Origin: Clostridia bacterium
GTDB lineage: Bacteria > Bacillota > Clostridia > Lachnospirales > JAOARL01
Assembly (NCBI GenBank): GCA_025210555.1
Contig: JAOARL010000019.1
Coordinates: 338-64,337, forward strand
Direction: 5' to 3'
Length of the DNA stretch: 64,000 bases
A program made the position numbers and the translations under genes. A model generated the notes under the pieces. That model was given only the letters and a program-made list of their open reading frames with translations. It had not been told where the DNA came from and made no database searches. Shown here in pieces: positions 32,974 through 59,588 of this stretch (its first letter is position 1; each line of letters begins with the position of its first letter).

Positions 32974-33322
32974 GGGGATGTACTGGTTTCGACGGGAGTC
33001 AAAGGGTTTTGTGGTAGCCATTTGTAGTGGTTCTACAATAAAAAACTATTTTAATAAGTGCAAACAATAAAATGTTAGCTGCTGCATAATAGCCAGTAGC
33101 CGATTTACTCAGATTTGTCTGTGATCTGAACTAAATCGTCAATTTAGCAGACTCGCCAAACTCCAAAGCTTTGAGGAGAATGGTTAAATTTTATGAAGCT
33201 ACTAGTCATGCAGGTGTGCTAAGTCCCCAGCAAGACTAGGAATTCTTAATACTTAGCTATAATGGAAGAGACCACGCTATTCTGATTTTCGGACGGGGGT
33301 TCGACTCCCCCCATCTCCATCA
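32974..33322 (+). ncRNA. ssrA: tmRNA (ssrA)
   Basis: The 5' GGGGAUG pairs with the 3' CAUCUCC (G3:U wobble), followed by discriminator A at 33319. T-arm is GGGGGUUCGACUCCCCC. Tag ORF at 33060-33089 reads GCA AAC AAT AAA ATG TTA GCT GCT GCA TAA (ANNKMLAAA) with a double stop. CCA is not encoded (the sequence reads ATCA). Confidence 0.95.
33299..33320 (+). repeat. attL-type core: last 22 nt of the ssrA region (gttcgactccccccatctccat)
   Basis: Exact 22-nt direct repeat with 47792-47813. Confidence 0.85.
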
Positions 33323-33410
33323 ATCAACCTCAATAAAATCAAGGGTTGAAGAAAAATAAAATAGAAACTTCTAACGAATTTCTAACATAAGAAAAAATTT
33401 AATAGTTATT

Positions 33411-33459
33411 AAGGGCATAAAAATCTCAAGGAGTAATAGGGATTTCTATGTTCTTTTTT
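33411..33459 (+). terminator. cassette-leader hairpin + U-tract, copy H1
   Basis: aagggcataaaaatc...gatttctatgttctttttt, preceded by ttaatagttatt. RBS and ATG (33478) follow within 18 nt. Confidence 0.75.
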
Positions 33460-33477
33460 AGTGAAAAGGAGAGTAAC

Positions 33478-36400
33478 ATGTTTAAGTTAGATAAGAAAAT
33501 AAATTTAAAAGAGGAAAATGTTGATTTGCTGAATACGTCAATATATGCTGAAACTATTTTAGAAGCAATTGAAAAAGTCCCAAGCAAAGAAAACTTTACC
33601 ATTGGTTTGTTTGGCGAATGGGGGAGTGGTAAATCATCAATTGTTGAAACTGTCGAGGCAGAATTGATGAAAAGTGATGAAAAACAGTATAAGGTTATAA
33701 ATTATGATGCTTGGAAATACTCAAATGATTCTTTTAGAAGGACTTTTTTATTAGAAGTACAAAAAGAATTATCGGTTAAGAAATTAGAGTTATTTGATTC
33801 CTTTTATACAGATAAGCAGGATGAAGTTGAAGCTAAAACTGTATATGACAATAAAACGATATATATTTCACTTTTTTTCTTTGGGGTTGCTTTTTTGAGT
33901 TTGCTTTTATCAGATATTAATATTGAGTCTAAGTTAACCCTTTCAGTACTAATATCGGTGTTGGGGTGGCTAATCAATTTATTCAATAACAATAAGTTTT
34001 TCCTAAAACAAACTGTAGTTAAACCTAAATTTTTTTCGCCAGAGCAATTTGAAGAATGCTTCTCAGAAATGATATGTGAAACTGTTTTAGAAAATAAGAA
34101 ATGTAAAATATTAAACTGGATTGATATGTTTTTTGGTAAAAAAGTGGATAAACTTATAATTGTAATTGATAATATAGATAGGTGTCATTCAGAACAGGCA
34201 TATTCGTTATTAACTGATGTAAAAAACTTTTTAGGAAAACACAATAATGTTATTTTTTTAATTCCAGTTGATGAAGCTGCGATAAAGAGACATTTAGAAA
34301 ATTATAGTGTAGATAATGCGGAGGAATTTTTAAGGAAAATTTTTAATGTAAGTTTGAAATTACCTATTTTTAAGGAATTAGATTTGTTTGATTATGCAGT
34401 TAAAATTAATGAAAGTAATTCATTTGATTTTGATATTAATACATTAGACTTGATTTCAAAAGAGTATGCTAGTAATCCACGTAGAATTATACAAATTATG
34501 AATAATTTGGAACTTGAGAAAGTAAAATTTTTGAAAGATAAAGAACTAGAAGACATATGGATAAAATATGAAAATGTAATTTGTAAAATACTTATAATCA
34601 AAGAAGAATGGCCTGTTTTCTATAAAAAATTATCAAAAGATTATTCTCTAATTAGAGCTGATTTGTCAGAAGAAAAAATTAGAGAATTATTAGAAATAGA
34701 TGAATTAAATACAAAAGTTCATAAACTATTTAATTTTTTAAATCGAACTAAGAATTATACTACTAGAACATCTGATTCAATTCTAGAAGCAATTATATAT
34801 AACAAAAAAGGAGTTGAAGGAATATCTAGTGAAATAATTACTTCGATTGAAAATAAAAACTTCGAAGAGATAATCGGACATTATGAAAAAGCGAATAAGC
34901 TCAAGTTGATTGACTATATAGTAAGAAAACTAGAAGTAGCAATTAAGTTGAAAAAGCATAAAGGTGAGGCCTTAAATTTGTTTGAAATAATATTAACTAT
35001 TGATGGATTTGATATGATAACAAGAGGTTTAAACATAAGGATTCAAGATGCAATTAATGGAAGTGTCGGTCAATTTCTATTTTATATAAATGAAGTTAAA
35101 GCGCTAATTTTATATAATAATAATTTAATGGAACAAGATATCAATTATTTAAGAGAAGCAATAAAATCAAATTTATCTGGAGGTTCATTTCTTGTTAATA
35201 ATAGACCTGACTATAGTCAAGAGATGGTAGATGTAAATAAATCTATTTTATTATCAATATTAAAATACAATATTGATAAGAGCTTTGCAAAAGAAATTAA
35301 AAAATCTGCAAGTGAATTATATTTTAGCGAGGAAACAGATTTGAATTTAGCTGAGCTTAATATTAATGATATAACTTTTGATACAATAATTGATAAAACC
35401 TTCATAGATAATTTACTGCAAAAAGCAAGTAGTATTTATGAAAATCCATATTGGAATGAGTATAAGTATATTTTAGATAAAGCACAGTATAAAAGTATAA
35501 TTAGTGGTCAAGGTATTACAAAAATTAATAGCACGTATCTTAATTTTGACGCAATAGGTAATGAAGGATTTAAGGGGATTTTGTTTGAAATACAAAAAGT
35601 TGTTACTAACCTCAAAAATAAAGACTTAAATAAAGAATTGAAAGAAGTGTTAGCTCAATTATACAGTAAAGTTAAAGCAAGAATGAATCATCCGTCTTAC
35701 AATATGTATAATTGGATAATTGCTACAGAGAATAAGGAAGAGATATTAGATAAATATATAGAGCTGTTATTTAAAATTTATCATGTTTTTGGGGGAGAAA
35801 TCAAGATAACAGAGGAATTAGAGAAATGTTTTATAGATGATTATGCACGAGAAAATATATATGATAAGTTTAATTCATATTATAATAAGACAAAATTTCA
35901 CTTTAAATCGATGAGTGAAATGATATTAAGAAATGCTGATTTTAATAATGATAAATTTATCGCTGTTTTTAATACTGGATTAGATAGAAATACTTTTGAA
36001 GCTGCTGATGTGAACTTAATAAAATCAAAATTAAAAGATGCTATGATATTGGTTAGAGAAGGTAATGACAAAGTAGTTAGTGTTTTTGAAAAAATGCTAG
36101 TAGAAGAAAAATTTATAAATATTATTAAAGAAGTTATTGCTGAACAAGATTTGGAAGAAATTAAGAAAGTACCGATAAAAATAAAAAAAATATTTTTTGA
36201 AGAAGTTTTAGATAATTTGAAAGACTATTTGGAAGACATAGAGATGGTTTCTAATATCTTTGAGGAGTATGCTTTAGCAAGAAAAAAAATAATTAATTTA
36301 ATAATACGGATGCTGCAGGATAAAGATGAAATAGATACTGCGATTGAGTTAGCTAAAAAAATTGATAAAAAGCTTTTAGGTAAGGTTGATTATAAGAGAT

Positions 36401-36480
36401 TAAAAAGAGAGCTGGATGAAAAAATTGGGAATGAAGAATTTGATGAAGAGCTAAGAGAAAAAATGACAAATGTTTTTTAA
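33478..36480 (+). CDS. KAP-family P-loop NTPase with transmembrane insertion (Tmn-like defence NTPase)
   Basis: Walker A GLFGEWGSGKSS and NYDAWKY. Two TM helices (IYISLFFFGVAFLSLLL, LTLSVLISVLGWLINLF) lie between Walker A and Walker B (LIIVIDNIDRC). The ATG at 33478 has RBS AAAGGAGAG. The ATG at 33448 lies inside hairpin H1. Confidence 0.8.
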   Translation: MFKLDKKINLKEENVDLLNTSIYAETILEAIEKVPSKENFTIGLFGEWGSGKSSIVETVEAELMKSDEKQYKVINYDAWKYSNDSFRRTFLLEVQKELSVKKLELFDSFYTDKQDEVEAKTVYDNKTIYISLFFFGVAFLSLLLSDINIESKLTLSVLISVLGWLINLFNNNKFFLKQTVVKPKFFSPEQFEECFSEMICETVLENKKCKILNWIDMFFGKKVDKLIIVIDNIDRCHSEQAYSLLTDVKNFLGKHNNVIFLIPVDEAAIKRHLENYSVDNAEEFLRKIFNVSLKLPIFKELDLFDYAVKINESNSFDFDINTLDLISKEYASNPRRIIQIMNNLELEKVKFLKDKELEDIWIKYENVICKILIIKEEWPVFYKKLSKDYSLIRADLSEEKIRELLEIDELNTKVHKLFNFLNRTKNYTTRTSDSILEAIIYNKKGVEGISSEIITSIENKNFEEIIGHYEKANKLKLIDYIVRKLEVAIKLKKHKGEALNLFEIILTIDGFDMITRGLNIRIQDAINGSVGQFLFYINEVKALILYNNNLMEQDINYLREAIKSNLSGGSFLVNNRPDYSQEMVDVNKSILLSILKYNIDKSFAKEIKKSASELYFSEETDLNLAELNINDITFDTIIDKTFIDNLLQKASSIYENPYWNEYKYILDKAQYKSIISGQGITKINSTYLNFDAIGNEGFKGILFEIQKVVTNLKNKDLNKELKEVLAQLYSKVKARMNHPSYNMYNWIIATENKEEILDKYIELLFKIYHVFGGEIKITEELEKCFIDDYARENIYDKFNSYYNKTKFHFKSMSEMILRNADFNNDKFIAVFNTGLDRNTFEAADVNLIKSKLKDAMILVREGNDKVVSVFEKMLVEEKFINIIKEVIAEQDLEEIKKVPIKIKKIFFEEVLDNLKDYLEDIEMVSNIFEEYALARKKIINLIIRMLQDKDEIDTAIELAKKIDKKLLGKVDYKRLKRELDEKIGNEEFDEELREKMTNVF

Positions 36481-36489
36481 AAAATCAAT

Positions 36490-36592
36490 GTGAGAAAATG
36501 GAGGTCGGCTGCATCGAATCCACATCCAAGTTTTTAGAGCTGTTTTTGTCTAAGAATTGACGTGAATGTAGTAAGATGTGACACATCTCCAT
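36490..36592 (+). repeat. conserved cassette right-end module R1, ending in the CATCTCCAT core
   Basis: About 80 percent identical by eye to 50803-50903. It contains an inverted fragment of the ssrA T-arm region and ends with the core at 36584-36592. Confidence 0.75.
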
Positions 36593-36680
36593 TATTGCAG
36601 TTTAATGAAAACAAGAGATAAAGGAAAATGAATTAGAAATCTCTAACGGAATTCTAAGATGAGAAAATTTAATAGTTATT

Positions 36681-36729
36681 AAGGGCATAAAAATCTTAAA
36701 GAGTAAGCGGAGATTTTATGCTCTTTTTT
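36681..36729 (+). terminator. cassette-leader hairpin + U-tract, copy H2
   Basis: aagggcataaaaatc...gattttatgctctttttt. The about 100 nt including it is about 85 percent identical by eye to 33360-33459. Confidence 0.75.
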
Positions 36730-36741
36730 GTGGAGGTAAAA

Positions 36742-39267
36742 ATGAGTTATTCAAAGTGGAAAAAAATTGACTTACATATACATACGGATAAATCTAAAGA
36801 AACAAAGTCCAATAAAGATGAGTACAAAGTTGTTTTTTCAGTAGAATCCTTAATTAAGAATTTAAAGAAAAACGAAGTGGATATGATTTCTCTAACGGAC
36901 CATAATATTATAAATGAAAAAGCCTATGATGAATTAAGTAAAACCAAGACAGCTTATTTAGTTGGAGTAGAATTAGACGTAGTTATTGAAGAAGAAGATT
37001 TAAAAAAATATATAGAAGCACTCAATAGTAATAAATCTGAAAAAATCGAAAACAAACCATTTCATGCATTAATTCTTTTTAAATCAAATAAGCATAAGAT
37101 TATATCAGATAAACTAGAGTCTATGTATAAAAATATTAGCGATAAGGTTCTTGAAAAAAAGATAGATTTACTTAAAAACAAAAAGGTAAGAGCGACAACA
37201 TTCAGAAATATTGTAGAGGCATTTAAGGATGAAGAGTATTTTATTATAGCACATGCTGGTAATAAGCCTAAGTCGATTGTAGGACCATATAAAAAAGCTA
37301 ATAAGTTAGAAGAAGCGCAGGTAGAAATTTTAATGGGTGGAATTTCAGCGTTAGAAATGCATGGTAGTATAAGTGCGGAAAAAGTAATTAGTCGTTATAA
37401 TCAGGAATTTGAAAAACTTATTAAGTCAGATTTCAAAGGAGTTAAGCCTACATCATATGTAGTTTTTTCCGATAATCATAATTGTGAAGAGTATGCTTTA
37501 AAGGATTTTCAGACATGGATAAAGGGCGACACAAATTTTGAGACATTAAGACTTGCATTTTCAGATCCACAAAGTAGAATATTTACAGATTTAAAAGAAC
37601 CTACATATACTTCAAATTACATAGAAGAGGTTGTTATAAAAACAAAAGGGTCTGCTGACAAAAAGAGTATTAAATTATCACCATATTTAAATGTAATAAT
37701 AGGAGGACGTTCATCAGGGAAAAGTTTATTATTTAATACAATAACATATTTAAATAATGAATTTAGTGAAAGCGATAAATCAGTTTTTAACGAAATATAT
37801 AAGGAGATGCTGGATTTAGATAATACCACTGCAAAGTTAAGCAATGGAGCTCATGATTTAATGATTTCAATAACAGGGGAAACATATTATCAGGAAAAGA
37901 TAATAAAACTATTTGAAAAAGATGAAGATTTAAAAGATAATTTAGAGGGATTTTTTGTTAAACCTAATATTGAAATTATCAATTCTAATGAGAAAGAATT
38001 GGAAGAGCATTTTGATTTGTTTATAAAGACTTATGAAAGATACTATAATATAAAGAATAAAATTGATAAGGGAAGTATTTTTGAAAGAATGCAAATAGCA
38101 ATTAAAAGTTCAAACAAAGTTATAAATATGGATATAGAAAAACTAATAGATGAAATAGAAAAGATCGATTATGAAGTTGCATTAAAAACAATAGAAGATA
38201 TGGGAAATAGCATATATGAGTGGAAGAATATTGAATTAGGTGATAAAACTTTATTTGATGAAAAAGAACTTCTTATTTTTGATGAGCTATTAGGAGTGCT
38301 AGAAACAAAGAAGGAAAGACTTAATTTTATTGAAAGGAAGTATAGAAAGGTAAATATTTTTTTTGACAAAGTCAAAATTATAAATGATAGTTATCTGAAT
38401 ACAGAATTGACGCAAGAAAAGCAGAATATTGAAAATGAAAAAAAGGTGTTGGACCAAAATTTGAAAGATTATAAGGCGTTTTTTAAAGCTAAAATGGAAT
38501 TAAAGTTGGTATGTGCGGATATCGAAAGTATAGAAGTTAAGAGTGATGATATAAAAAAAGAGGAAGGAAAATATATTTTTGTAACTAAGGTTAATTTTGA
38601 GGTGAACAAGAATAAAATAATAGAAGAGTTTTTTAATGAGACAATCAATAATTATGATACTACTAAAGATTTATATGATAACATTTGTAAATTAGCGGAT
38701 GTAAAATTTGAGAAGATAAGATTAAAAAGAGAAACCAAAGATGGTAAATCACATAAAAAATTAAATGAAAAATTAAAGACATATTTAAGTGAATGCAAAT
38801 CTAAAATTGAATATGAGATCATAGAAGAAAATGATTTTGGAACGCCAATAAGCACATTATCAACTTCTCAAGGTAAAAAGGCTTCAATGTTCTTAGATAT
38901 TAAGTTGAATAGGTATATAGAAAAGGCAGAAAAGAATATATTGATAATTGATCAGGTGGAAGATAATATTGATAACAAGTATATAAGCGAAGAATTAGTA
39001 GATTTTGTCAGAGAGCTTAAGCGTAAGGTGCAGTTAATAATTGTTACTCATAATCCAAGTATTGCAATTTATGGAGATGCTGAAAATATAATAATCGCAG
39101 AAAATAATAATGGTGAGATAACATATGTACAAGGAGGATTAGAAAATCAAGAAATAAGAGATGAGGCGTGCAAAATTCTTGATGGTGGAGAATTAGCATT
39201 TAAAAATAGGATGACTAAGTATAACATAGAAATTTTAGAGAGGGATGAGGAAGAAAGTGGAGCTTAA
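36742..39267 (+). CDS. PHP-domain phosphoesterase fused to an ABC/SMC-like ATPase (Ppl-like defence protein)
   Basis: N-terminal PHP motifs IDLHIHTDKS and SLTDHN. Walker A IIGGRSSGKS, a long coiled-coil insert, signature-like STSQGKK, Walker B ILIIDQVED and D-loop/His IIVTHNP. Confidence 0.75.
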   Translation: MSYSKWKKIDLHIHTDKSKETKSNKDEYKVVFSVESLIKNLKKNEVDMISLTDHNIINEKAYDELSKTKTAYLVGVELDVVIEEEDLKKYIEALNSNKSEKIENKPFHALILFKSNKHKIISDKLESMYKNISDKVLEKKIDLLKNKKVRATTFRNIVEAFKDEEYFIIAHAGNKPKSIVGPYKKANKLEEAQVEILMGGISALEMHGSISAEKVISRYNQEFEKLIKSDFKGVKPTSYVVFSDNHNCEEYALKDFQTWIKGDTNFETLRLAFSDPQSRIFTDLKEPTYTSNYIEEVVIKTKGSADKKSIKLSPYLNVIIGGRSSGKSLLFNTITYLNNEFSESDKSVFNEIYKEMLDLDNTTAKLSNGAHDLMISITGETYYQEKIIKLFEKDEDLKDNLEGFFVKPNIEIINSNEKELEEHFDLFIKTYERYYNIKNKIDKGSIFERMQIAIKSSNKVINMDIEKLIDEIEKIDYEVALKTIEDMGNSIYEWKNIELGDKTLFDEKELLIFDELLGVLETKKERLNFIERKYRKVNIFFDKVKIINDSYLNTELTQEKQNIENEKKVLDQNLKDYKAFFKAKMELKLVCADIESIEVKSDDIKKEEGKYIFVTKVNFEVNKNKIIEEFFNETINNYDTTKDLYDNICKLADVKFEKIRLKRETKDGKSHKKLNEKLKTYLSECKSKIEYEIIEENDFGTPISTLSTSQGKKASMFLDIKLNRYIEKAEKNILIIDQVEDNIDNKYISEELVDFVRELKRKVQLIIVTHNPSIAIYGDAENIIIAENNNGEITYVQGGLENQEIRDEACKILDGGELAFKNRMTKYNIEILERDEEESGA

Positions 39268-39559
39268 TATTGAAATAAAAGAAGGGTCTCTGGTTGTTAA
39301 AGTTAATGATAAAATTAACATTTATAATGCCGAAGAAGGGGCAAATTTAACAAATTTAATTGAGGAAATAGGAGATTCACCAAATAAAGTGAAAGTTATC
39401 CCTTCTACGTTTAATGACTTTAAACTTAAAGTTTATGAAGAAGAAATTTTAGTTAAAATAGTAGAGTATATTTATAAGATAATTGATGCATTTAATGATG
39501 CATATTTTGAAGTTTATGAAAAAGAAAAAGTTAAAAAAACTAAAGGTATATGTAAATAG
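39245..39559 (+). CDS. small hypothetical protein overlapping the end of the PHP-ATPase gene
   Basis: A 104-codon ORF that overlaps the upstream stop by 23 nt. No motif. Confidence 0.5.
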   Translation: MRKKVELNIEIKEGSLVVKVNDKINIYNAEEGANLTNLIEEIGDSPNKVKVIPSTFNDFKLKVYEEEILVKIVEYIYKIIDAFNDAYFEVYEKEKVKKTKGICK

Positions 39560-39718
39560 ACCTTAATAAATGAAATTTGGATATTATAGTTATCTAGTTA
39601 ATTACTATTATTTTTAAAATTAGGTTTATAAGGGAAGAGTATTTGAATTAGAGTTTAATAATAAATAATTAATTAGATTAATTTAATATAATTAAAGAAA
39701 ATAATAAAGGAGGAAAGT

Positions 39719-40195
39719 ATGGCGTATCAAGATATTGCACAAATATGTAAAAACGGGCATTTAATTAATGCCAATTCAAATGAGTATCCAAAAGATAATT
39801 CAAAGTTTTGTAGACGATGTGGAGAGGTGGTCATAGATGAATGTGAAGGATGTAAAAGAAAAATAAAAGGGAATTATGTATATGATGATTATTTTATGCC
39901 AGATGAGTATGTTGTTCCTGATTATTGTGAAGAATGTGGAGAGGCTTATCCATGGACAAAAAAGAAAAAAGAAAGTTTAAAAGATTTATTGCAAGACACA
40001 GATTTAAGTGAAAAGGATCAAAATGATTTTATGAATTACATAGATGACATCATTTCTGAGAATCCAAGAACTGAATTAGCAGTACTAAAAGTCAAAGGAA
40101 TCTTACGAAAAATAACCAGTGGAGCACAAGAAGTGGCAAGAAGCTTAGTTATAGATATTGCTTCGGAGACTATAAAAAAATCATTTGATTTATAA
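39719..40195 (+). CDS. zinc-ribbon protein, DUF2321-like
   Basis: CKNGH...FCRRCG...CEGC...CEECG cysteine pattern. RBS AAGGAGGAA. Confidence 0.6.
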   Translation: MAYQDIAQICKNGHLINANSNEYPKDNSKFCRRCGEVVIDECEGCKRKIKGNYVYDDYFMPDEYVVPDYCEECGEAYPWTKKKKESLKDLLQDTDLSEKDQNDFMNYIDDIISENPRTELAVLKVKGILRKITSGAQEVARSLVIDIASETIKKSFDL

Positions 40196-40203
40196 TCTTA
40201 AGT

Positions 40204-40232
40204 AAAAAAAGCTCCATTATAGGAGTTTTTTT
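40204..40232. terminator. bidirectional terminator between the convergent genes 39719-40195 and int
   Basis: aaaaaaagctcc attat aggagcttttttt-type hairpin flanked by A and T runs. Confidence 0.65.
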
Positions 40233-40235
40233 ATT

Positions 40236-41315
40236 TTAAAATATATTTTTAATAGCATCTGCTTGAGCTTTTACATCAGGATGAGAATAAACATCAGCAG
40301 TAGTAGATATAGTAGAATGTCCAAGTCTATCTTGGACTATTTTTAGATTTACACCACTTGATACAAGTAAAGTTGCATGAGAATGTCTTAAATCATGAAA
40401 TCTAATTTTATTAAAGTTAAGCTCATCACAAAGTTGATGAAGTTTCTTTGACAAGTAATTAACATGATAAGGAACTCCATAATTATGTTTACATACAAAA
40501 TCATTTTCTTCATATAGATTAGCAAAGAACTTAGAATGTTTAGTTTTATGTTCTTTTTTGTTTTTTAAGATTTCAGCCATAACGTATGGTGGAACAGCAA
40601 CCTTTCTTCTACTCTTTTCAGTTTTAAGTTCTGTCATTCCTTCACGTTGTCTAGCTCTTCTTATATTTATAACGTTTTCAGCTGTATCTATGTCTTCATA
40701 CTTTAAACCTAGCAATTCACCTTTTCTTATGCCAGTAGTTAGAGCTAAAAGAAAAGATAAATAATATTCTTCATCTTTAATATAATCTAAGAATAAATTG
40801 ATTTGTTCTTTAGTAAATACACTTATTTCAGGTTTCTTATATTTTGGTAAATCTACAAACTCAGTAGGATTAGTTGGTATTAATCCCATCTTAACAGCAT
40901 GCTTAAGAGCTGTATGAAGAACACCATGAGTATTCTTAACGGTCTTAACAGATATCTTTTCTAATAGCCTGTTATAAAACTGTTGTATATGCATAGGTTT
41001 TAGTTGTTTTAATTTAACTGTACCTACATCATCTCTTATTCTAGATATTATAGTTTCATAAGAACGTATAGTAGATTTTCTAATTGTTAATTTCTTTGTT
41101 TTATACCATTCTTCAAGTAGATCATTAACTGTCATATTTTTTGGGTCAGAAAACATATTGTCTTGAATTCTTTTAAGTATTTCAGGTAAATCTTTTTCAG
41201 CATCTTTCTTTCTATCATATCCACTAAACCATTTTTGCTTTCTTTTTCCTTCTACCATTCCAATATCAACAACTATGTACCACTTATTGTTCTTTTTAGA
41301 TATACTTCCTCTCAT
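40236..41315 (-). CDS. int: tyrosine recombinase / phage-type integrase
   Basis: N-terminal arm-binding-type motif (KWYIVVDIG..GKRKQKWFSGY). C-terminal catalytic R...HDLRHSHAT...GHSTISTTADVYSH (R-H-R-Y). Confidence 0.92.
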   Translation of the reverse strand: MRGSISKKNNKWYIVVDIGMVEGKRKQKWFSGYDRKKDAEKDLPEILKRIQDNMFSDPKNMTVNDLLEEWYKTKKLTIRKSTIRSYETIISRIRDDVGTVKLKQLKPMHIQQFYNRLLEKISVKTVKNTHGVLHTALKHAVKMGLIPTNPTEFVDLPKYKKPEISVFTKEQINLFLDYIKDEEYYLSFLLALTTGIRKGELLGLKYEDIDTAENVINIRRARQREGMTELKTEKSRRKVAVPPYVMAEILKNKKEHKTKHSKFFANLYEENDFVCKHNYGVPYHVNYLSKKLHQLCDELNFNKIRFHDLRHSHATLLVSSGVNLKIVQDRLGHSTISTTADVYSHPDVKAQADAIKNIF

Positions 41316-43629: not shown

Positions 43630-43678
43630 TATAAAGATATAAAACTATATATTTTATGATGAGATGGAGAGGGGTATA

Positions 43679-50801: not shown

Positions 50802-50802
50802 C

Positions 50803-50903: not shown

Positions 50904-51021
50904 CGCCACTAGACACAATTCGCTGTATCGTAAGTAAGAAAAGGGATACAGACTGAAAAGAATTTGTGGATAACTTTTTTGAATAAGACGTTGAACGTCA
51001 GACACAATTTAATATATTATC

Positions 51022-51065
51022 AAGGGCATAAAAAATTACTAAAAGGGGTTTTTATGTCCTTTTTT
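51022..51065 (+). terminator. cassette-leader hairpin + U-tract, copy H4
   Basis: aagggcataaaaa...tttttatgtcctttttt. RBS AGGAGGG and the ATG at 51083 follow. Confidence 0.75.
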
Positions 51066-51082
51066 ATTAGGAGGGATTACAT

Positions 51083-52300: not shown

Positions 52301-52304
52301 TTAT

Positions 52305-52469
52305 ATGAAAACTAATCTAAAAGATATGCTAGATTTGGAACTTAAAGCAAAAACGTTTGATTATAAATTGGATAATAGTAAGATAAAAAAATCAAAAAAA
52401 GAGGAAAAATTAAAAAAGCATTTAAAAAAGCAAATAAACAAAGAAATGCTATGTTGTTTAAAAAGTTAG
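52305..52469 (+). CDS. 54-aa Lys-rich peptide ending in CCLKS
   Basis: The ATG lies 4 nt after the upstream stop, with GAGGGGTG serving as RBS. It is too short for the supplied ORF track. Confidence 0.35.
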   Translation: MKTNLKDMLDLELKAKTFDYKLDNSKIKKSKKEEKLKKHLKKQINKEMLCCLKS

Positions 52470-52502
52470 GAAAGACATAATAAGCAAAAATTAATAGATA
52501 CT

Positions 52503-52542
52503 AAGGGCATAAAAACTAGAAGAAATTTTTATACCCTTTTTT
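52503..52542 (+). terminator. cassette-leader hairpin + U-tract, copy H5
   Basis: aagggcataaaaa...tttttataccctttttt. No att core lies in front of it. Confidence 0.7.
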
Positions 52543-52653
52543 GTTGAAGTGCAATTATGATAGAAAAAGAAAGATGACACTATTCATGTATTTATGGGGT
52601 ATCAAATTATGAGTAAATAGTTGATTTTTTGATTAATAGAGGGTGAATAAAAG

Positions 52654-53889
52654 ATGACATTAACAAAAATGAGAAGCATGATGAAAGAAATTAATGCCTT
52701 AGCAAAAAATGATGAAAAAAAGGCTAAAGAAGAATTTATCCAGCTGATAAGAGATTTACATAGTGAACGAGAATTTGAAAAAATTTTAGAATTAAGCAGA
52801 ACGGCTAATGGAAAGAAATTTAAAACTGATATTTTTGAAATTGCATATGCATATAGAGAATTAGACTATAATAATGAAGCTGAAAAGATATATAAAGAAA
52901 TATTAAAAAAATATCCTGATAATGTTGCGGTTTTAAATAATCTAACTCTTATTCTTGAAGAAAAAAATGGGATTAGAGATGCTTTTTACTTAATTGAAAA
53001 GGCGTATGCTTTAGAGCCTGAAGATGAAGTTGTTAAAAATAATTATCAAAGAATTGAAGAAAAGATAGCAGAAGTTGAAGCAAGTGAGAGGATGCAAAAA
53101 AATGCATGTTTAAATTTGGAAGATGAAAACGAATTTGTTAGGGCTAAGTTAAATGAATTTATATATAATGTAGAAAAAGATCCAGGTTACAAAAATGAGG
53201 AAATCTATATTGCAAATTGGAAGTTTAAAGTTCTTATGAAAACAAATGAGGGAATAGCTGATTCTTTAAAAATACAGTGGTTAGAAAAAGGATATATAAT
53301 TGATTTAGGGAAAAGAGATAGTAGATATGTTAAATGTTATAAGTTAAATCCGTTTTTGAAGAAATCTTTGGAAGAAATAAAACAATATGAAATAAATAAA
53401 AATTGGATTGAAAATTTTGAAAGTGTTAATAAATTAACTTTGATGAAAATAGATTATTTTAAAAATAAAGTTAGATTAAATAAAGCAAAAAGTAAATATA
53501 GAGATATGTTTTTAAGGGATTATGATGAGATAGTTCTTAATTATATTTTTAAAAATAGTAAATCGACTATTATTTTGGCAGGTTCTTTAGTTGAAATGTT
53601 ATTGATATACTACTGTGAAAAAAAGAAAGTAAAGATAATATCATATACGAGGAATAATAAAAAGGTGTCTAAAAACATTTATGATGTTCAACTTAATGAT
53701 TTACTACTATACTTTGATGAGAATAATATTTTTTCAAAACAATTATTCCATTTAGGTAATATAACAAGAATATATAGAAATTTTATTCATCCTGGAAGAG
53801 AGTTGAAAGAGTCAAATAAATTAGCTTTTTCGCAAGCTGAGATTTGTTATCAAAGTTTGAATGAAATAATAAAAACAGTAATAAGATAA
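52654..53889 (+). CDS. TPR-repeat protein with a C-terminal HEPN-like (RNFIH) module
   Basis: TPR-like AYAYRELDYNNEAEKIYKEILKKYPDNVAVLNNL. C-terminal ITRIYRNFIHPGRE. Confidence 0.6.
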   Translation: MTLTKMRSMMKEINALAKNDEKKAKEEFIQLIRDLHSEREFEKILELSRTANGKKFKTDIFEIAYAYRELDYNNEAEKIYKEILKKYPDNVAVLNNLTLILEEKNGIRDAFYLIEKAYALEPEDEVVKNNYQRIEEKIAEVEASERMQKNACLNLEDENEFVRAKLNEFIYNVEKDPGYKNEEIYIANWKFKVLMKTNEGIADSLKIQWLEKGYIIDLGKRDSRYVKCYKLNPFLKKSLEEIKQYEINKNWIENFESVNKLTLMKIDYFKNKVRLNKAKSKYRDMFLRDYDEIVLNYIFKNSKSTIILAGSLVEMLLIYYCEKKKVKIISYTRNNKKVSKNIYDVQLNDLLLYFDENNIFSKQLFHLGNITRIYRNFIHPGRELKESNKLAFSQAEICYQSLNEIIKTVIR

Positions 53890-54052
53890 TTTGTAAAATT
53901 GTGTCCAGTTTTTAAAATAGGGCGTAGTGAACCCCTATTTAGGAGAAAAGTGATAAATATAGAAAAAAGAGAAAAACTCTGAAGGCTTTATTTATAAAGC
54001 CTTCAAGTTATCTTTTCTATCGAGAGAGGTTGTGGCTAACGTTCTATACAGT

Positions 54053-54062
54053 CCATCTCCAT
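54053..54062 (+). repeat. short ssrA-core copy (ccatctccat)
   Basis: gtccatctccat is shared with 50893-50903. It lies intergenic after a terminator at 53980-54010. Confidence 0.5.
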
Positions 54063-54228
54063 TTTTTGTAATTCTTTATTTATTTTGATAAAGATATGAT
54101 AAGTATAGTTGCAAAAAAATTAAACTATGAAAAAGCTTTACAAAAAACATCGATGAAATTATAATGAAAAAGGGTGTATTTTTGTGAAGATTTTTTTTGT
54201 TAAAAAAATTAAAACAAAATATATTATC

Positions 54229-54265
54229 AAGGGCTAATTATCTAGGGATAATTGCGCCCTTTTTT
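54229..54265 (+). terminator. cassette-leader hairpin + U-tract, copy H6 (variant stem)
   Basis: aagggctaattatc tagg gataattgcgccctttttt. The conserved flanks are kept, and the stem differs from H1-H5 but still pairs. Confidence 0.65.
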
Positions 54266-54455
54266 AATAGAGAAAATATCGTGGAAGTATTGTGAAAGAT
54301 AATTTAAGCAATAGGTGGGCATACATATTTAAGTATGAAGTTAGAGCTTATACAATGAGTAGGTTTATGAAGTTTTAAAAAAATTAAATTGTTTTGAAGT
54401 ACAGGCCGCGTATTTTATTATTACCTTATAAATAATAAGAATTGGAGAGTGTAGA

Positions 54456-54899
54456 ATGACAACTAAATTGATGAATATGTGTATGATAACAAATGAAAAG
54501 GGAGAAATGCTATTTCAAGAAAGAATAAAGAGTTGGAAAGGAGCAGCATTTCCAGGGGGTAAACTGGAAGAATTAGAGAGCGTTATTGAGAGTGTAGTAA
54601 GAGAAGTTAAAGAAGAAACAGGTTTAAATGTATATGAACTTGAGTTTTGTGGATTTAAAACTTGGGTAAAAGAAGATGATAAAGTAACAAATATAGTTTT
54701 TTGTTTTAAAACTAACAAGTTTGATGGAGAACTTATTGAAGAATCTTCAGAAGGAAGACATTACTGGTTATCAAAAGATAAACTGAAAGATATAGAATTA
54801 GCAGATAACTTTGAAGCTACATTAGATTTATATTTTACAGATATGACAGAATTGGTCTGGAAAAAAGAAAACAAAAAATGGAATGAAAATCGCTATTAA
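54456..54899 (+). CDS. Nudix hydrolase
   Basis: Complete Nudix box GGKLEELESVIESVVREVKEETGL (Gx5Ex7REUxEExGU). Confidence 0.85.
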   Translation: MTTKLMNMCMITNEKGEMLFQERIKSWKGAAFPGGKLEELESVIESVVREVKEETGLNVYELEFCGFKTWVKEDDKVTNIVFCFKTNKFDGELIEESSEGRHYWLSKDKLKDIELADNFEATLDLYFTDMTELVWKKENKKWNENRY

Positions 54900-55033
54900 A
54901 TATATTTTAATTTGTTTAGTAGTTATATGAAAAATTAATTGAAAAAGTGTTATTTCATAATATTTCAAAAACAGAACTTGATTACATACGATATATGTTT
55001 TTGAGTTATATTAAAAATAAAGGAGTGTTTAAA

Positions 55034-55963
55034 ATGAGTGATAAAAGAGTAGTATGTATAGGTAATATGACCCATGATACTTTATTACGTGTTAATGATA
55101 TACCTGAACTTGATGACGTAGCGTATGTTAATGAGAACGTTGAATGTATGGGAGGAAGAGGTGCAATCGTTGCTATAGCATTGGGTAGACTGGGAATTTC
55201 AACTGATCTTATTACGTCATTACCAAGTAATGAACTAACAGATAAATATATTGAATTGTTAAATGAAAATAATGTAGAAACTAAAAATATATTTATAGAT
55301 GATAAAGCCAATAAATTATTTGAAGTGGTTGTTGCTATTTCTAAAGAACAATCAAACTGTATTTCTTTTTTTAAGCCAAGTGATATTAAATTTGAAGCGA
55401 ATCAAAAGCAAAAGGAGAAAGTTAGAGCAGCTGATATGGCGTATTTTTCAACTCATAAAAGATCTTTTAATCAAGAATTATTAAATGAAATAGATCCTCA
55501 AAAAACACAAATAATACATAATGTAAGTAGTTATTTCTTACAATCAGAAGAGTATGTTAAGTTAATGTTAGAAAAAAGTAGTGTTTTAGTTTTTAATGAA
55601 CTTGAAGCCAAAAAACTTCTTGAAAATATTCGAGAATTATCTGCAGAAACGATATTTAAAAGTGCTCCAAATCTTGATACTATTTTCATGACGTGTGGAG
55701 AATCAGGTTCAATGATATATGAAAAAACAGGCAAAGTAACTCATGTTGAAGCTAAGATGGCGACAGAAGTAATATCGCCTGTAGGAGCTGGTGATACTTA
55801 TGCAGCAGGGATTGTTTATGGAATAGCGAATGGTTGGGATAATGAATTAAGTGCTAGATTTGCTAGTGAGATAGCATGTCTTTCCGTTGAGAGTGAAACA
55901 TCATATCCAAATTTAGAAAAATTAGATGATTTAACTCTGGAATGTGGGGAGATGGACATATGA
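55034..55963 (+). CDS. PfkB-family (ribokinase-like) sugar/nucleoside kinase
   Basis: GGRGAIVAIALGRLG and the signature SPVGAGDTYAAG. The ATG at 55034 is preceded by AAAGGAGTG. Confidence 0.8.
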   Translation: MSDKRVVCIGNMTHDTLLRVNDIPELDDVAYVNENVECMGGRGAIVAIALGRLGISTDLITSLPSNELTDKYIELLNENNVETKNIFIDDKANKLFEVVVAISKEQSNCISFFKPSDIKFEANQKQKEKVRAADMAYFSTHKRSFNQELLNEIDPQKTQIIHNVSSYFLQSEEYVKLMLEKSSVLVFNELEAKKLLENIRELSAETIFKSAPNLDTIFMTCGESGSMIYEKTGKVTHVEAKMATEVISPVGAGDTYAAGIVYGIANGWDNELSARFASEIACLSVESETSYPNLEKLDDLTLECGEMDI

Positions 55964-56394
55964 AAATCTATCTAGCTGCTTCAGTATTTTCGGTTTTTGA
56001 AAGAGAGCTAAATGTGAGTATTGCGAAAATGATAACTGAGTTAGGAGGTCATTCTGTTTTTCTTCCACAAGAAGTTGCACCACCTGAAACCGAAGATGGA
56101 CTCGATATGGAATATATATATAAAGAATGTAGAGACCATATAGATTCGTCCGATGCAATTTTAGCCATTGTAGATGGTTCAGATGTAGATTCGGGAGTAG
56201 CATGGGAATTAGGATATGCTTTTGCAAAAAATGTTCCAAGTTTGTGCATTAGGACAGATATAAGAAAAGCTGAACATAATGGCGTAAACATAATGATTGA
56301 ATATGGGGCAAGTAAGACGATTCATTTAACTAAATACCATCAAAAAATAAAGGACGTTGTAGATAGAATAATTGAAGAATTGGAGGCAATATAA
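55960..56394 (+). CDS. nucleoside 2-deoxyribosyltransferase-family protein (NDT / DNPH1 / BlsM-like N-glycosidase fold)
   Basis: MKIYLAASVF...DGSDVDSGVAWELGYAFA, with the catalytic-Glu context typical of PF05014. ATGA overlap with the kinase stop. Confidence 0.7.
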   Translation: MKIYLAASVFSVFERELNVSIAKMITELGGHSVFLPQEVAPPETEDGLDMEYIYKECRDHIDSSDAILAIVDGSDVDSGVAWELGYAFAKNVPSLCIRTDIRKAEHNGVNIMIEYGASKTIHLTKYHQKIKDVVDRIIEELEAI

Positions 56395-56395
56395 T

Positions 56396-56854
56396 ATGGA
56401 GAAAAAAAAGATTTTAATGTCAATTAATACAAAGTACTCAAGAAAAATTTTTAAGGGTACTAAATTATGGGAATTTCGTAAAGCAATCCCTAGAATAGAA
56501 GAGACTGATGAATTAGAAGTTGTAGTATATTCATCACAAGAAGAGAAAGCAATTGTAGGAAGTTTTAAAGCAGGTCAAATATTGAGATGTTCACTAGATG
56601 AATTAATGGAAAAAACAGGATATAGTGATGATTCAGATGCTGTTGAATGGTTCAGTGCATACTATGGTGATAGGAAAATTTGTAGCGCCATTGAGGTTAT
56701 AGAACCGATAGAGTACGAAAAGCCGATTACACTTAACGAAATTAGAGAAGTCATTCCATCATTTAGACCTCCTCAAAATTTTGTGTACATAACATCGGAG
56801 AGTAATCTTGAAGAGGTGCTTGAACCTTTTGAAGTAGGTGAAGTAGGTGAATAA
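56396..56854 (+). CDS. ASCH (PUA-like) domain protein
   Basis: ILMSINTKYSRKIFKGTKLWEFRK...VVVYSSQEEKAIVGSF...FRPPQNFVY matches the ASCH/COG4933 pattern. Confidence 0.65.
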   Translation: MEKKKILMSINTKYSRKIFKGTKLWEFRKAIPRIEETDELEVVVYSSQEEKAIVGSFKAGQILRCSLDELMEKTGYSDDSDAVEWFSAYYGDRKICSAIEVIEPIEYEKPITLNEIREVIPSFRPPQNFVYITSESNLEEVLEPFEVGEVGE

Positions 56855-57935
56855 ATTAGTCGAACCAAAATTAAGTGTAGTTGAATTAGATAAGATAATT
56901 TTGCGTAGATTAAAAGATTATCCCGATTATCATAAAGAGTTTATTGGAGCAGTTACCAATAGTATAAAAAATGACTATGATGAGATTACAGATGATTTTG
57001 CTAAAAATCTGATCGCGGTAGATAAAAAAGGATATGATGAATTTGGATATTTTACATTGGGAAAAGATATCTGGTTGATATTTGATAAAAATACAAATGA
57101 ATTTTTAGGATTTGAGGTAATAACTAGGAAACGTGGTGGAAGTATTAAATTAGGACCAACTTATCTTAAACCTGAGGCTCGAGGGGGGGGATATGCAGTA
57201 CAAATGATAGAAGGATTATGTAGGATATATGCATCCAAGGGAGCTAGGAAAGTTTATGTTACAGCTCCATTAGGTCATAAATCTACAGCAATTTTAGATT
57301 TTAATCATTTAAATTTAAAATTAGAAGCTATACTGCATAATCATTATTCAAAAGGGTCCTCGGAAAGGATATGCGGAAAATTTATTAATGATAATTCGTC
57401 TGTAAATACAATGGTTCCACGAGTTAAAAGCGGGAATAAGAAGATTATTAATATATATGAAGATGGATTAAGGTATGTCGAATACGATGAGTTTTCAGAA
57501 TTTATAATTGAGAATATGAAGCCTAATTATAATGATATAGACCATACTTTTGTAGAATCCATTTTTAATGGTGTTAAAATGGGAATTGAAACAAAGTATG
57601 AAAAGAAAGGAAAAGTAGCATTTACTTTCTTTTCAAATGATGCATTTGAAGGTATTGCTGTCGCAGCACTTAAAAGAGGTGGAGTTTTTAAAGTCGCACC
57701 GTTCTTACTTACGGATGAATGTATTACAATGGTTAATGTAACGAATATAATTAAGAAAATTGAAGAATATGCTATGAAGTATAAAAGAAGAAAAATTACG
57801 ATTTTATTGCCTGTTCGTGATTTAAATATTGCTAATATTTTATCTCAAAATTATTTCATTTCAGAAGGTGTTTTACGAGAACCTTATAAAGATGGAGTTG
57901 ACATTGTAGTGTTTTCAAAGGAATTAAGTATATAG
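56847..57935 (+). CDS. GNAT-family acyltransferase-like protein (possibly two GNAT-like halves)
   Basis: LKPEARGGGYAVQMIEGLCRIYASKGARKVYV resembles the acyl-CoA-binding motif A. GTG start overlaps the ASCH stop by 8 nt. Confidence 0.5.
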   Translation: MNKLVEPKLSVVELDKIILRRLKDYPDYHKEFIGAVTNSIKNDYDEITDDFAKNLIAVDKKGYDEFGYFTLGKDIWLIFDKNTNEFLGFEVITRKRGGSIKLGPTYLKPEARGGGYAVQMIEGLCRIYASKGARKVYVTAPLGHKSTAILDFNHLNLKLEAILHNHYSKGSSERICGKFINDNSSVNTMVPRVKSGNKKIINIYEDGLRYVEYDEFSEFIIENMKPNYNDIDHTFVESIFNGVKMGIETKYEKKGKVAFTFFSNDAFEGIAVAALKRGGVFKVAPFLLTDECITMVNVTNIIKKIEEYAMKYKRRKITILLPVRDLNIANILSQNYFISEGVLREPYKDGVDIVVFSKELSI

Positions 57936-57954
57936 AAGAATGAGTTGATATATA

Positions 57955-59061
57955 ATGGATAGGAATATAAAAGAAAAAAAATGCAACGATTTTGAAAATC
58001 AAAAAACAGTAATGAATATTGAGGAATGGCATAATGTTGTTAATGATAAATTAGGTATTAGTGGTGGAACTATTTATAGTTCGTCAGGATCAACTGGTAA
58101 TAGTAAGAGCATAATTTATACAGATGATGTCATGAATGCTGCAGTAAGGAGAACTAAGGAATTTATAAGTTTAACTCCACTATTAAGCAATTGCAAAATA
58201 GCAATTTTGTGGGGGTATGGATTATTTCCACCAGCATCTTTTTATAATCGCGCTTTAAGTGAGATGGGAAATATTGTATATCCATTTGGATCAGGAAGAA
58301 ATTTTCCTAGTGAATTGAAAGCTACAAAATTAGGTGAAATAAAGCCAAAAGTAATTATAGGTATGCCTAGTTATATACTAAGGATATGTAATATCCTAAA
58401 AGAAAAAAAATTACTAGAAAAAGTAAGCGAAAAATTGGAGTTTATAATAACTGGTGGTGAAGTTTTGACGACCTTCTACCGTAAGACCTTGGAAGAAGAA
58501 TTTGGAGTTAAGGTCTTCGATCACTACGGCATGCTACAGGCTCCAATGATAGCAGGAGAATGTTCTGAAGGTAAAATGCATATATCTAAAGAGTATAAGT
58601 CAGAAGTCTTGATGAGCGATTCAAAAATTTCAGAGATGGGGCGAGGAATTTTATTATTGTCGAGTGAAAAAGCTTGGTTTCCGTTAGAGTTAGAACGTTT
58701 AAATGTGGAAGATAATGTAATACTGAGTAAAGATAAATGTTCTTGTGGATATGAAACACCCACTATAAAAATAATAGGAAGAAGTAACTTGAAATATAAA
58801 GTGCGAGGACAATTAGTTGATTTTGATGAATTAATAACTAGGTTGAATGTATTAGGATTTGAGAATAAATACTTTGTTGAGGTTAAAGATTTTAATAACG
58901 AATTGATATTTCATATTAGCAATGAAATATCTAAAGAGAAATTTAAAGAGGAAGTAAATAAAATTATTTCATTTACATACTTTGTTGAGAGTCATGAAAA
59001 GATTGAATTTTTACTAACAAATACAGGTAAAATTAAGCGCATAATAATTAGAAATAATTAG
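57955..59061 (+). CDS. adenylate-forming enzyme, PaaK / F390-synthetase-like (short ANL-superfamily ligase)
   Basis: SSGSTGNSKSIIYT (the P-loop-like A3 motif), ITGGEVL, DHYGMLQAP and a C-terminal NTGKIKR lysine. Confidence 0.65.
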   Translation: MDRNIKEKKCNDFENQKTVMNIEEWHNVVNDKLGISGGTIYSSSGSTGNSKSIIYTDDVMNAAVRRTKEFISLTPLLSNCKIAILWGYGLFPPASFYNRALSEMGNIVYPFGSGRNFPSELKATKLGEIKPKVIIGMPSYILRICNILKEKKLLEKVSEKLEFIITGGEVLTTFYRKTLEEEFGVKVFDHYGMLQAPMIAGECSEGKMHISKEYKSEVLMSDSKISEMGRGILLLSSEKAWFPLELERLNVEDNVILSKDKCSCGYETPTIKIIGRSNLKYKVRGQLVDFDELITRLNVLGFENKYFVEVKDFNNELIFHISNEISKEKFKEEVNKIISFTYFVESHEKIEFLLTNTGKIKRIIIRNN

Positions 59062-59588
59062 AATCAATTTTTTGAAGAATAAAAGTAGTGAAATAGTAAA
59101 ATTGACTATTATATAACACAAATAATTAGAATATATTATAAGGCTAGGCATAAATAAATTTGTGTCAGCCTTTTTTTGAAAAAGGAAAAGTTAAGATGTC
59201 GGAATATATATTTGAATTTAAATAAAAACTTCTAACGCCAAAATAGAACAAAACGTAACAAAGATTCATGTACAAATAATAAAAAGGTTGGAAAAGCTTT
59301 TGTGAATGGGAGAGTTGGAAGCCGAAAGAATCTAAACAAAGAAACATATAGCTATAGGTGGTTTGACTCCCCTCAGCGTGTCGAACTCCGTATAGTTATC
59401 ATAATTATGATAACACTAATATTATTAGAAGAGATATAGTCTAGATAGAATGATAGTATATGGTAAAACTAACAAAAAACAGAATATTGCGAAATATAGC
59501 ATTCTGTGTTACAATTGTATAAATTAATGAGAAAATAACGTTATTCGTTATTTTTTTGTTTTCAAATAATTAACTGAATGGAGAATAT

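Follow-up and report, generated by a model that had tools for sequence, protein, structure and literature searches.

We analysed a window of 64,000 nt (positions 338 to 64,337 of contig JAOARL010000019.1, GenBank assembly GCA_025210555.1), which is part of a 129-kb metagenome contig (JGI 3300045489) and belongs to the metagenome-assembled genome (MAG) of an uncultured, very AT-rich 'Clostridia bacterium'. Behind the transfer-messenger RNA (tmRNA) gene ssrA lies an island of about 26 kb, in which copies of a short core sequence delimit five units, E1 to E5. We consider it reasonably likely that this interval is a composite genomic island with mostly anti-phage defence cargo, assembled as five elements integrated site-specifically, one after another (accretion), into the 3' end of the single ssrA gene. 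In our best reading this is a known way of building islands, extended here to an uncultured and very AT-rich lineage of Clostridia, and no novel machine of the integron kind. The repeats, the homology of the arms, the folding and covariation of the hairpins, the genes present and the intact integrase motifs are read directly from the DNA, and from them we infer the identity of arm sites, the crossover positions, the order of arrival and any mobility.

The integration target would be ssrA itself (32974-33319, + strand; predicted by ARAGORN, 158.5 bits against Rfam RF00023), which follows directly on the host gene smpB (32515-32973, +; Pfam SmpB). Its T-arm reads GGGGG-TTCGACT-CCCCC (approximately 33294-33310). 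An attL-type identity block of 22 nt, GTTCGACTCCCCCCATCTCCAT (33299-33320, +), extends from the T-loop to 1 nt beyond the 3' end of ssrA. The initial annotation had noticed that these 22 nt recur at 47792-47813, and they do so exactly: the 22-mer has these two exact sites, where chance predicts 0.

The block ends in the core CATCTCCAT, which consists of the final 8 nt of the tmRNA plus one. Exact + strand copies start at 33312 (core copy 1, 33312-33320), 36584, 47805, 50895 and 54054, and all five are intergenic. A sixth copy lies on the - strand (39071-39079) inside an open reading frame (ORF) of 849 aa and is probably due to chance; the earlier claim that every core is intergenic and on the + strand thus holds for five copies and fails for the sixth. 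That such a C-rich 9-mer should be rare is borne out, since the window contains six copies where 0.72 are expected, and none of 100 shuffles reached six. Intergenic cores with one or two mismatches were also sought in the window, and none was judged real. The sequence AAGCTCCAT at 40209, beside the integrase gene, was rejected as a hidden core; it belongs to a bidirectional terminator.

At three junctions the similarity to ssrA is confined to the core. At 36571-36592, 50882-50903 and 54041-54062 the core is intact (9/9), but of the 13 nt that precede it only about 4-7 agree with the 22-mer (manual count), which is nearly random with respect to ssrA. The sequence directly to the right of the core differs at all five junctions. 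Hence, the short cores are conserved identity blocks with breakpoints on both sides, not decayed 22-mers. Near the right end of the island a decayed ssrA-like block, GGTTTGACTCCCC (12/13 matches, 59360-59372), forms a weak terminal remnant.

The cores divide the island into E1 (33321-36592, 3272 nt), E2 (36593-47813, 11,221 nt), E3 (47814-50903, 3090 nt), E4 (50904-54062, 3159 nt) and E5 (54063 to about 59382, about 5320 nt), all on the + strand. E2 is the sole unit with an integrase; recombinase, relaxase and type IV secretion system profiles matched none of the proteins of E1, E3 and E4. The three integrase-less units E1, E3 and E4 are nearly equal in length despite their unrelated cargo. 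E5 would be the oldest unit, and its boundaries are the weakest. Head-to-tail units that are bounded by copies of the ssrA 3' end, three of them without a recombinase, agree with the serial accretion at ssrA that had been proposed earlier.

Homology between units E1 and E3 ends where accretion predicts it. Their right arms, which we call right arm X, lie at 36487-36592 (+, ending in core copy 2, 36584-36592) and at 50800-50903 (+, ending in the 11-nt core CCATCTCCATC) and are 82% identical over 103 nt (50803-50903 in E3). The homology starts no more than 10 nt from two unrelated stop codons and stops exactly at the core, as would be expected if discrete units had been inserted site-specifically. 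E1 and E2 have left arms that are approximately 82% identical from 11 nt after the core up to the ribosome-binding site (RBS). Within them, 33393-33424 and 36664-36695 are identical at all 32 positions; this stretch covers a sequence box and the 5' half of a hairpin stem, and the 3' half of the stem is freer to vary. Such an identity within arms of 82% suggests either an additional constraint, for example a protein-binding site, or gene conversion. Each small unit carries about 240 nt of arm and core DNA, which matches the size of a typical phage attachment site (attP), about 250 bp (PMC4383910).

The right arms of E1, E3 and E4 also hold a degenerate copy of the ssrA 3' end (last 30-40 nt) in inverted orientation, which precedes the direct core by about 55-120 nt. 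It is clearest in E3 (50811-50849, -; alignment z ~8), where it includes GGACGGGGGTTCGAC with 15 of 15 matches, degenerate in E1 (36498-36527, -; z ~2.8) and weak in E4, where a T-arm-like piece is seen (53920-53935, -). The only terminal inverted repeat of right arm X is 8 bp long and is part of this relic. A reading of right arm X as a small coding gene was rejected by eye, as the frame differs between the two copies.

The junctions fall into two types. The right block of E2 reads G|TTCGACT|CCCCCC... and is flanked in ssrA by the GGGGG/CCCCC dyad, and the right end of E2 therefore looks like the classical symmetric sublocation in the T-loop. The right ends of E1, E3 and E4 match only the end of the acceptor stem, (C)CATCTCCAT(C), over 9-11 nt, and are consistent with an asymmetric 3'-end sublocation. 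E5 may be a decayed relic of the T-loop type that has lost its integrase, a view that suffers from its weak boundary. According to published surveys (10.1101/2020.11.02.365908, citing Williams 2002), integrase subfamilies use either symmetric or asymmetric sublocations exclusively. E1, E3 and E4 probably entered by a crossover at the acceptor-stem end that was made by an integrase not present in the window; entry by the integrase of E2 is less likely. Newcomers would insert beside ssrA, so that the newest element lies closest to the gene. The order of arrival would then be E5 (T-loop), E4 followed by E3 (3' end), E2 (T-loop) and finally E1 (3' end).

A family of hairpins accompanies the cores. 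The 16-nt box AATAGTTATTAAGGGC occurs with at most two mismatches at seven sites (33401, 36671, 43583, 47860, 51012, 52493 and 54219), all of them within the island. Copy 1, in the left arm of E1 (33399-33459, +; 74.3 bits), consists of the box TTAATAGTTATTAA followed by AAGGGC, the stem and a U-run, and copy 2 occupies the left arm of E2 (36669-36729, +; 67.4 bits). Copy 3, inside E2, has a stem of the second class and stands together with the promoter TTTACA-17-TATAAT (11/12 matches; 43524-43629, +; 51.3 bits). Copy 4 belongs to E3 (47858-47906, +). E4 contains copy 5 (51010-51067, +), which is overlapped by a weak promoter, TTGAAC-16-TATATT, and copy 6 (52491-52543, +), directly after the stop codon of a 54-aa ORF. 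Copy 7 (54217-54267, +) lies in E5 with a promoter upstream at 54137-54165. The initial annotation had each core followed by a conserved hairpin. This is correct at distances of 57-167 nt; the hairpins are, however, not confined to cores, as copies 3 and 6 have none nearby.

By sequence and fold, the hairpins qualify as intrinsic terminators. All seven form a G+C stem-loop with a U-run on the transcribed strand (AAGGGC...GNCCUU; -9 to -15 kcal/mol, 13-17 stem positions including isolated mismatches or bulges, 4-6 U), and their G.U pairs are compatible with the + strand only. Two stem classes, an AUAAAAA type and an AAUUAU type, differ by double compensatory changes at 3-4 positions. A covariance model gives the seven copies 51-74 bits, and the next match in the window is a host terminator with 25 bits. 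The model found nothing convincing in 1.2 Mb of other Clostridia ssrA loci, and Rfam has no family for the hairpins or the arms.

The first terminator-like structure that follows ssrA is copy 1. Carried in the ssrA-proximal arm, a hairpin would allow the element that currently sits beside ssrA to supply the terminator of this strongly transcribed gene. Because the occupant of this position must terminate a highly transcribed tmRNA gene, every element that was once beside ssrA would be expected to carry a terminator. Further along the array, the same modules would end or insulate neighbouring operons.

Conserved flanks can also be read in a different way. The left arm with box and hairpin and right arm X could be portable homology for cargo swaps between related islands by homologous recombination. 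The units would then not be site-specific elements, or would have ceased to be such, and the cores would be relics of one or two old integrations. Elements of the P2/P4 type have variable hotspots and provide the model for this explanation. The homology reaches right up to the cargo ORFs at either side, the cargo itself being unrelated (KAP versus Lamassu), hairpin modules also stand inside units away from any core (43583 and 52493), the module at 43515-43617 is about 79% identical to 54128-54253 in the left arm of E5, and the 32-nt identity in the left arms suggests gene conversion or selection. However, the homology of the right arms stops exactly at the core, and a perfect core at five junctions with differing right flanks is the signature of a site-specific breakpoint. 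Furthermore, arms of about 100 nt that are about 82% identical are poor substrates for homologous recombination. We therefore regard cargo swapping as an unlikely origin of the island.

The hairpins might also serve the cargo instead of ssrA. Box and hairpin could be conditional-terminator leaders by which toxic defence genes stay off until a signal permits read-through, which would make the link to attachment sites secondary. This explanation is compatible with accretion, and as an account of the family we find it doubtful. Five of the seven hairpins end so close to the RBS of a defence gene (15-20 nt upstream) that no promoter would fit between. In two copies (43583 and 54219) one of the two best promoters of the region (11/12) lies 30-55 nt upstream, which places the hairpin in the 5' leader of the E2-internal operon and of the E5 operon. 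Conservation is higher in the 5' box and the 5' stem half than in the 3' half, and the family is restricted to the island, with seven copies in 21 kb and none in about 44 kb of host DNA. Yet we found no alternative antiterminator pairing, no candidate RNA-binding regulator and no match in Rfam. Copy 6 is plainly the 3' terminator of the preceding ORF and copy 1 is placed as the terminator of ssrA. The 25-bit match of the host terminator also indicates that the similarity is partly the general terminator pattern of an AT-rich genome.

The initial annotation was right that there is only one integrase, both in the island and in the whole window. It is a full-length tyrosine integrase of 359 aa in E2 (40236-41315, -; Pfam PF14657/PF14659/PF00589, the last at 1e-27; phrog_1), with an arm-binding domain (Arm-DNA-bind_4), a SAM-like domain and a catalytic domain. 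The motifs GIRKGE, HDLRH, LGHS and VYSH provide R, HxxR, H and Y. Its nearest relatives are 40-50% identical and are found at prophage ends, one of them beside tRNA-Arg.

Since this integrase has an arm-binding domain, we read the motif CTTCTAAC as its putative arm-type site. Six copies lie on the + strand, all of them in intergenic DNA of the island. The left arm of E1 has one at 33368 with the 7-nt motif TTCTAAC 12 nt downstream (33380; offsets +48/+60), and the left arm of E2 has degenerate counterparts, TCTCTAACG at 36641 and TTCTAAG at 36653 (offsets +49/+61). The right arm of E2 (47568-47813, +), which ends in the exact 22-nt attR-type block 47792-47813 with core copy 3, carries CTTCTAAC twice (47653 and 47664; offsets -152/-141) and also AAAGGGTG..GTTCCTAAAGC twice. 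Two further copies, at 41386 and 41569, lie upstream of the integrase gene. The sixth is CTTCTAACG at 59229, 131 nt before the relic GGTTTGACTCCCC of E5; the equivalent spacing in E2 is 127 nt. The arms of E3 and E4 contain no copy, nor does right arm X of E1 or E3. A reading of TTCTAAC...GTTATT as a TcdR-type promoter was rejected by eye, as the spacing varies by 2 nt between copies and no sigma-factor gene was detected among the scanned island proteins.

Between the integrase gene and the gene of a phage-type replisome organiser (42291-43196, +) extend 975 nt of gene-free DNA (41316-42290). There, CTTCTAAC is followed by ATGGGGGGA, which is the central part of the att block in reverse complement, twice with a period of 183 nt (41386/41482 and 41569/41665; 96 nt from start to start). 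The region also shares TAAAGCTGCCA with the right arm of E2 and contains repeats of ACACACATAAGAA at about 41880-41920. It is possibly bound by the integrase for autoregulation, and may be regulatory and/or origin DNA. Pseudogenes of a repressor or ImmA were considered between the two genes and rejected, since tblastn gave no matches.

For mobility, the two types of junction have a consequence. E2 alone would be unable to excise by a T-loop crossover, because its left junction contains no T-loop. The composite of E1 and E2 (33321-47813, 14.5 kb) is the sole segment with perfect 22-bp direct repeats, pairs of CTTCTAAC-type motifs in both outer arms and an intact integrase gene. E1 would then travel in cis with E2 as a 14.5-kb composite, a cis-mobilisation by accretion (PMC5704250), not a servicing of single cassettes in trans. 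Under this accretion model the circle junction would read from the right arm of E2 through the 22-mer into CAATCAACCTC of the left arm of E1, and the loss of E1 and E2 would leave the empty junction ssrA...CATCTCCAT|ATGTGACATTCACG. E3 to E5 are probably fixed remnants.

Several points weigh against accretion as we describe it. The 9-nt core is short, the CTTCTAAC motifs may have a role other than that of arm sites, and a shared right arm is seen only in E1 and E3 (n=2). The boundary of E5 is statistically weak, as 30 of 500 shuffles score as well as its arm alignment. The inverted ssrA-like relic in right arm X would not be expected from simple integration, and the coreless hairpins at 43583 and 52493 mean that the hairpin is not strictly a feature of attachment-site arms. 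The integrase gene lies 3.6 kb inside E2 and does not adjoin its left end; searches of E2 with Pfam, PHROGs and tblastn found neither an excisionase nor a repressor. For E1, the left operon of E2 and E3, no sigma-70-like promoter was recognised between the terminator and the RBS, and the model leaves their expression unexplained. Finally, every collection that was searched yielded one strain and one arrangement, and neither an empty site nor a circle junction nor any polymorphism of cassettes was seen in them.

The accretion model agrees in large part with described islands. The signature used by Islander (PMC4383910) is present, i.e. an intact ssrA with a displaced, exact 22-nt 3' fragment on the same strand (47792-47813) and a tyrosine integrase gene inside the interval (40236-41315, -). 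A tandem array in the strict sense of Islander is not, as five junctions come with one integrase. A close parallel is provided by the ssrA genomic islands of Dehalococcoides (McMurdie et al. 2011, PMC3146451), where islands stand in tandem behind a single ssrA and are bounded by ssrA or a ~20-bp repeat of its 3' end. Their insertion has been mapped to the T-loop, some lack an integration module and are proposed to be cis-mobilizable via accretion, and the oldest are probably fixed (PMC3146451). The Dehalococcoides islands mostly keep a six-gene module beside attL with a CcrB-like serine integrase, and their cargo is reductive dehalogenases (PMC3146451). In contrast, the island described here has a single tyrosine integrase, which is of phage type and includes an arm-binding domain, carries defence genes and shows a second class of junction, with only the 9-11-nt core.

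Streptococcal cis-mobilizable elements (CIMEs) as well as integrative and conjugative elements (ICEs) accrete in a similar manner (Pavlovic 2004; Bellanger 2011). As reviewed in PMC5704250, CIMEs keep attL and attR, have lost their integration genes and form a tandem with an integrase-bearing element at the target gene's 3' end, and such a composite is able to excise and move as a single unit. The same review regards CIMEs as decayed ICEs or integrative and mobilizable elements (IMEs) relying on conjugative transfer. E1, E3 and E4 resemble CIMEs in having no integration or transfer genes (PMC5704250). An exact 9-11-nt core stands on both sides of each unit as a candidate for attL and attR; the right arms of E1, E3 and E4 and the left arms of E3 and E4 contain neither the T-loop portion of the block nor CTTCTAAC. 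Unlike CIMEs, the three units come without conjugation or mobilisation genes nearby in the island, look like a minimal attP with cargo and not like deletion remnants, and their cis-mobilisation is only predicted. In the tycheposons of Prochlorococcus (10.1101/2020.12.28.424599), too, newcomers at a tRNA or tmRNA gene (tDNA) push older, degenerating elements inward and partial tDNA repeats lie scattered; some elements of such islands resemble satellites known as phage-inducible chromosomal islands (PICIs). Tycheposons differ in host lineage, integrase families and their nutrient-acquisition cargo, and their excision was shown by experiment (10.1101/2020.12.28.424599), whereas our case is built on sequence. 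E2 itself is similar to PICI-like satellites of Firmicutes: a leftward integrase gene is followed by a rightward replisome organiser, defence genes lie at both ends, and about 11 kb are inserted at a conserved site. Nevertheless, integrase and replisome organiser are the only satellite genes that Pfam, PHROGs and tblastn detected; a repressor or antirepressor, an excisionase, a primase-helicase and packaging-interference genes were not found, and the integrase gene is not at the element's end.

A bolder interpretation of the small units goes beyond this. E1, E3 and E4 could represent an undescribed family of integrase-less cassettes of about 3.2 kb, each consisting of an attP, a terminator and one defence system. 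They would be inserted singly at the last 9-11 nt of ssrA by an integrase supplied in trans, with each newcomer replacing the terminator of ssrA, and would be largely promoterless, so that their expression would require read-through from the ssrA side. In this scheme the tmRNA gene would be the functional analogue of an integron platform for immune genes and the inverted ssrA relic a part of the recombination site. We think this improbable.

The initial annotation went further and regarded the array as functionally integron-like, with a single integrase that moves each integrase-less cassette (E1, E3, E4 and E5) in trans at CATCTCCAT and ssrA as the platform from whose side the cassettes are read. 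There are indeed parallels with integrons: short, co-oriented cassettes of mostly one system, some of them promoterless, have a conserved, recombination-associated 3' segment, and unrelated cargo lies between near-identical flanks as with the repeats of V. cholerae. The same exact core bounds every unit, the small units comprise arms and one defence system with about 240 nt of non-coding DNA, the CTTCTAAC pair of the left arm of E2 is also found in that of E1, and recognisable promoters of their own are missing from E1, E3 and the first operon of E2. Servicing of all units in trans nonetheless does not fit the sites. The small units share only 9-11 nt at their 3' end, the arms of E3 and E4 and right arm X are devoid of CTTCTAAC, and the attR block of E2 points to a T-loop crossover, while the junctions of the small units contain no T-loop sequence.

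Nor does the machinery resemble an integron. An IntI-type integrase, attI and Pc at the head of the array are absent; instead, the integrase has the Arm-DNA-bind_4 and phage SAM-like architecture and prophage-type relatives, and its gene is found on the opposite strand, 7 kb from where the array starts. Right arm X was rejected as an attC-like hairpin, since as single-stranded DNA its fold does not surpass that of shuffled sequences for either strand (z -0.16 to +0.14). A terminator precedes each cassette, and the E2-internal and E5 operons have promoters of their own with 11/12 matches. Co-orientation with ssrA, which had been taken as a feature of the island, does not help either, because the bias is equally strong outside: of the ORFs of at least 150 aa, about 29 of 32 outside the island and 17 of 18 inside are on the + strand, and GC skew is strongly positive throughout the window. 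It is the background of the region and not a property of the island. We therefore hold an integron-like array to be highly improbable. IS200/IS605-like and Xer/dif-type mechanisms were set aside by reasoning, since there is no Y1 transposase and no dif-like sequence.

The cargo supports the defence character of the island to different degrees. In E1, left arm and terminator hairpin are followed by a KAP NTPase of about 1000 aa with a PifA/QatA-like N-terminus, whose nearest homologue is 33% identical, and then by right arm X and the core. E2 begins with a Ppl/TrlF-like PHP-ATPase (36718-39267, +), a 104-aa ORF and a DUF2321 gene (39719-40195), which precedes the integrase gene. Its replisome organiser is followed by a 435-aa protein, a 297-aa protein and, as the last gene, a PDC-S20-like KAP NTPase (46086-47567, +). 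E3, which consists of hairpin copy 4, two genes, right arm X and the 11-nt core, encodes a Lamassu defence system: LmuA (47896-48996, +), a Cap4 nuclease (PADLOC 1.1e-60 over the full length; Pfam Cap4_nuclease 2e-29), is adjacent to the SMC-like ATPase LmuB (49071-50801, +; PADLOC 3.7e-122, full length). LmuC was not identified at E3. For these three units, defence cargo is well supported.

E4 encodes a 405-aa protein (51083-52300), whose full length is matched by the phage-borne family phrog_5990 (2.6e-92), along with a 54-aa ORF and a 411-aa tetratricopeptide repeat (TPR) protein, and has a bidirectional terminator (53975-54009) before its core (54053-54062). Judged from these genes, the three form a candidate for an uncharacterised defence or counter-defence module, and E4 as a defence unit is plausible. 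E5 contains a six-gene operon (54456-59061) of slightly higher G+C content (29.8%) with a NUDIX protein, PfkB, a nucleoside 2-deoxyribosyltransferase, an ASCH protein, a protein of 362 aa whose GNAT-like match is weak, and a PaaK-like adenylate-forming enzyme. This operon may be a nucleoside-modifying or nucleotide-depleting system. Its only matches are to the candidate-system profiles PDC-S07 and PDC-M11B, and E5 is a defence unit at candidate level. The earlier description of the cargo as dominated by defence proteins thus stands for the two KAP NTPases, the PHP-ATPase and Lamassu. It does not stand for the last 5 kb, which are not classical defence, or for the HEPN-like proteins: no profile detected a HEPN domain among the island proteins, and an RNIHMH (Rx4H) motif is visible in the translation of the 435-aa protein.

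The host lineage must be very poorly sampled, because the closest other SmpB among 5.8 billion proteins is 76% identical. Exact-protein look-ups with SmpB, the gene of the downstream flank, LmuA and a variant of the 411-aa protein returned only the same arrangement at 100% identity, and cluster look-ups with ten island proteins returned this strain only. The next-best database matches were 76% (SmpB), 50% (integrase) and 33% identical (KAP NTPase of E1). Logan contigs end within the 32-nt repeat that the E1 and E2 left arms have in common, an artefact of the k-mer length (k=31). A scan of GTDB genomes with SmpB found only Lachnospiraceae with at most 69% identity, and these have no hairpin or right-arm motif. 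A hairpin 20-mer had four chance matches in unrelated metagenome sequences of higher GC content. In IMG/VR, the 21-mer of the right arm and the ssrA end were unmatched, the hairpin 16-mer gave chance matches only and the integrase gave no confirmed relative. Among phages and plasmids, BLAST matched only a short conserved stretch of integrase genes.

Some features of the host DNA deserve mention. The predicted tag peptide of the tmRNA is short, ANNKMLAAA. In the host flank, 22129-25962 (also L001 1-3448), five to six tandem paralogous genes for Hydrolase_3/S6PP-type phosphatases of the HAD family lie upstream of a MatE gene. A perfect palindrome of 20 nt, GTTATCATAATTATGATAAC (59395-59414), lies just past the right end of the island and upstream of the first host gene (59589-60551) and looks like an operator.

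With its five units, exact cores and recognisable arms, the locus presents the assembly of a defence island in unusually clean form. Features of note are the uniform units of 3.1-3.3 kb, each with an attP, a terminator and one defence system, their common arms and the inverted ssrA relic. The locus also adds uncharacterised candidate defence genes, namely the KAP NTPase of about 1000 aa, the operon of the 435-aa protein, the 297-aa protein and a KAP NTPase, and the pair of phrog_5990 and TPR proteins. Furthermore, its junctions suggest that two integration sublocations of one tmRNA gene have been used, apparently alternately.

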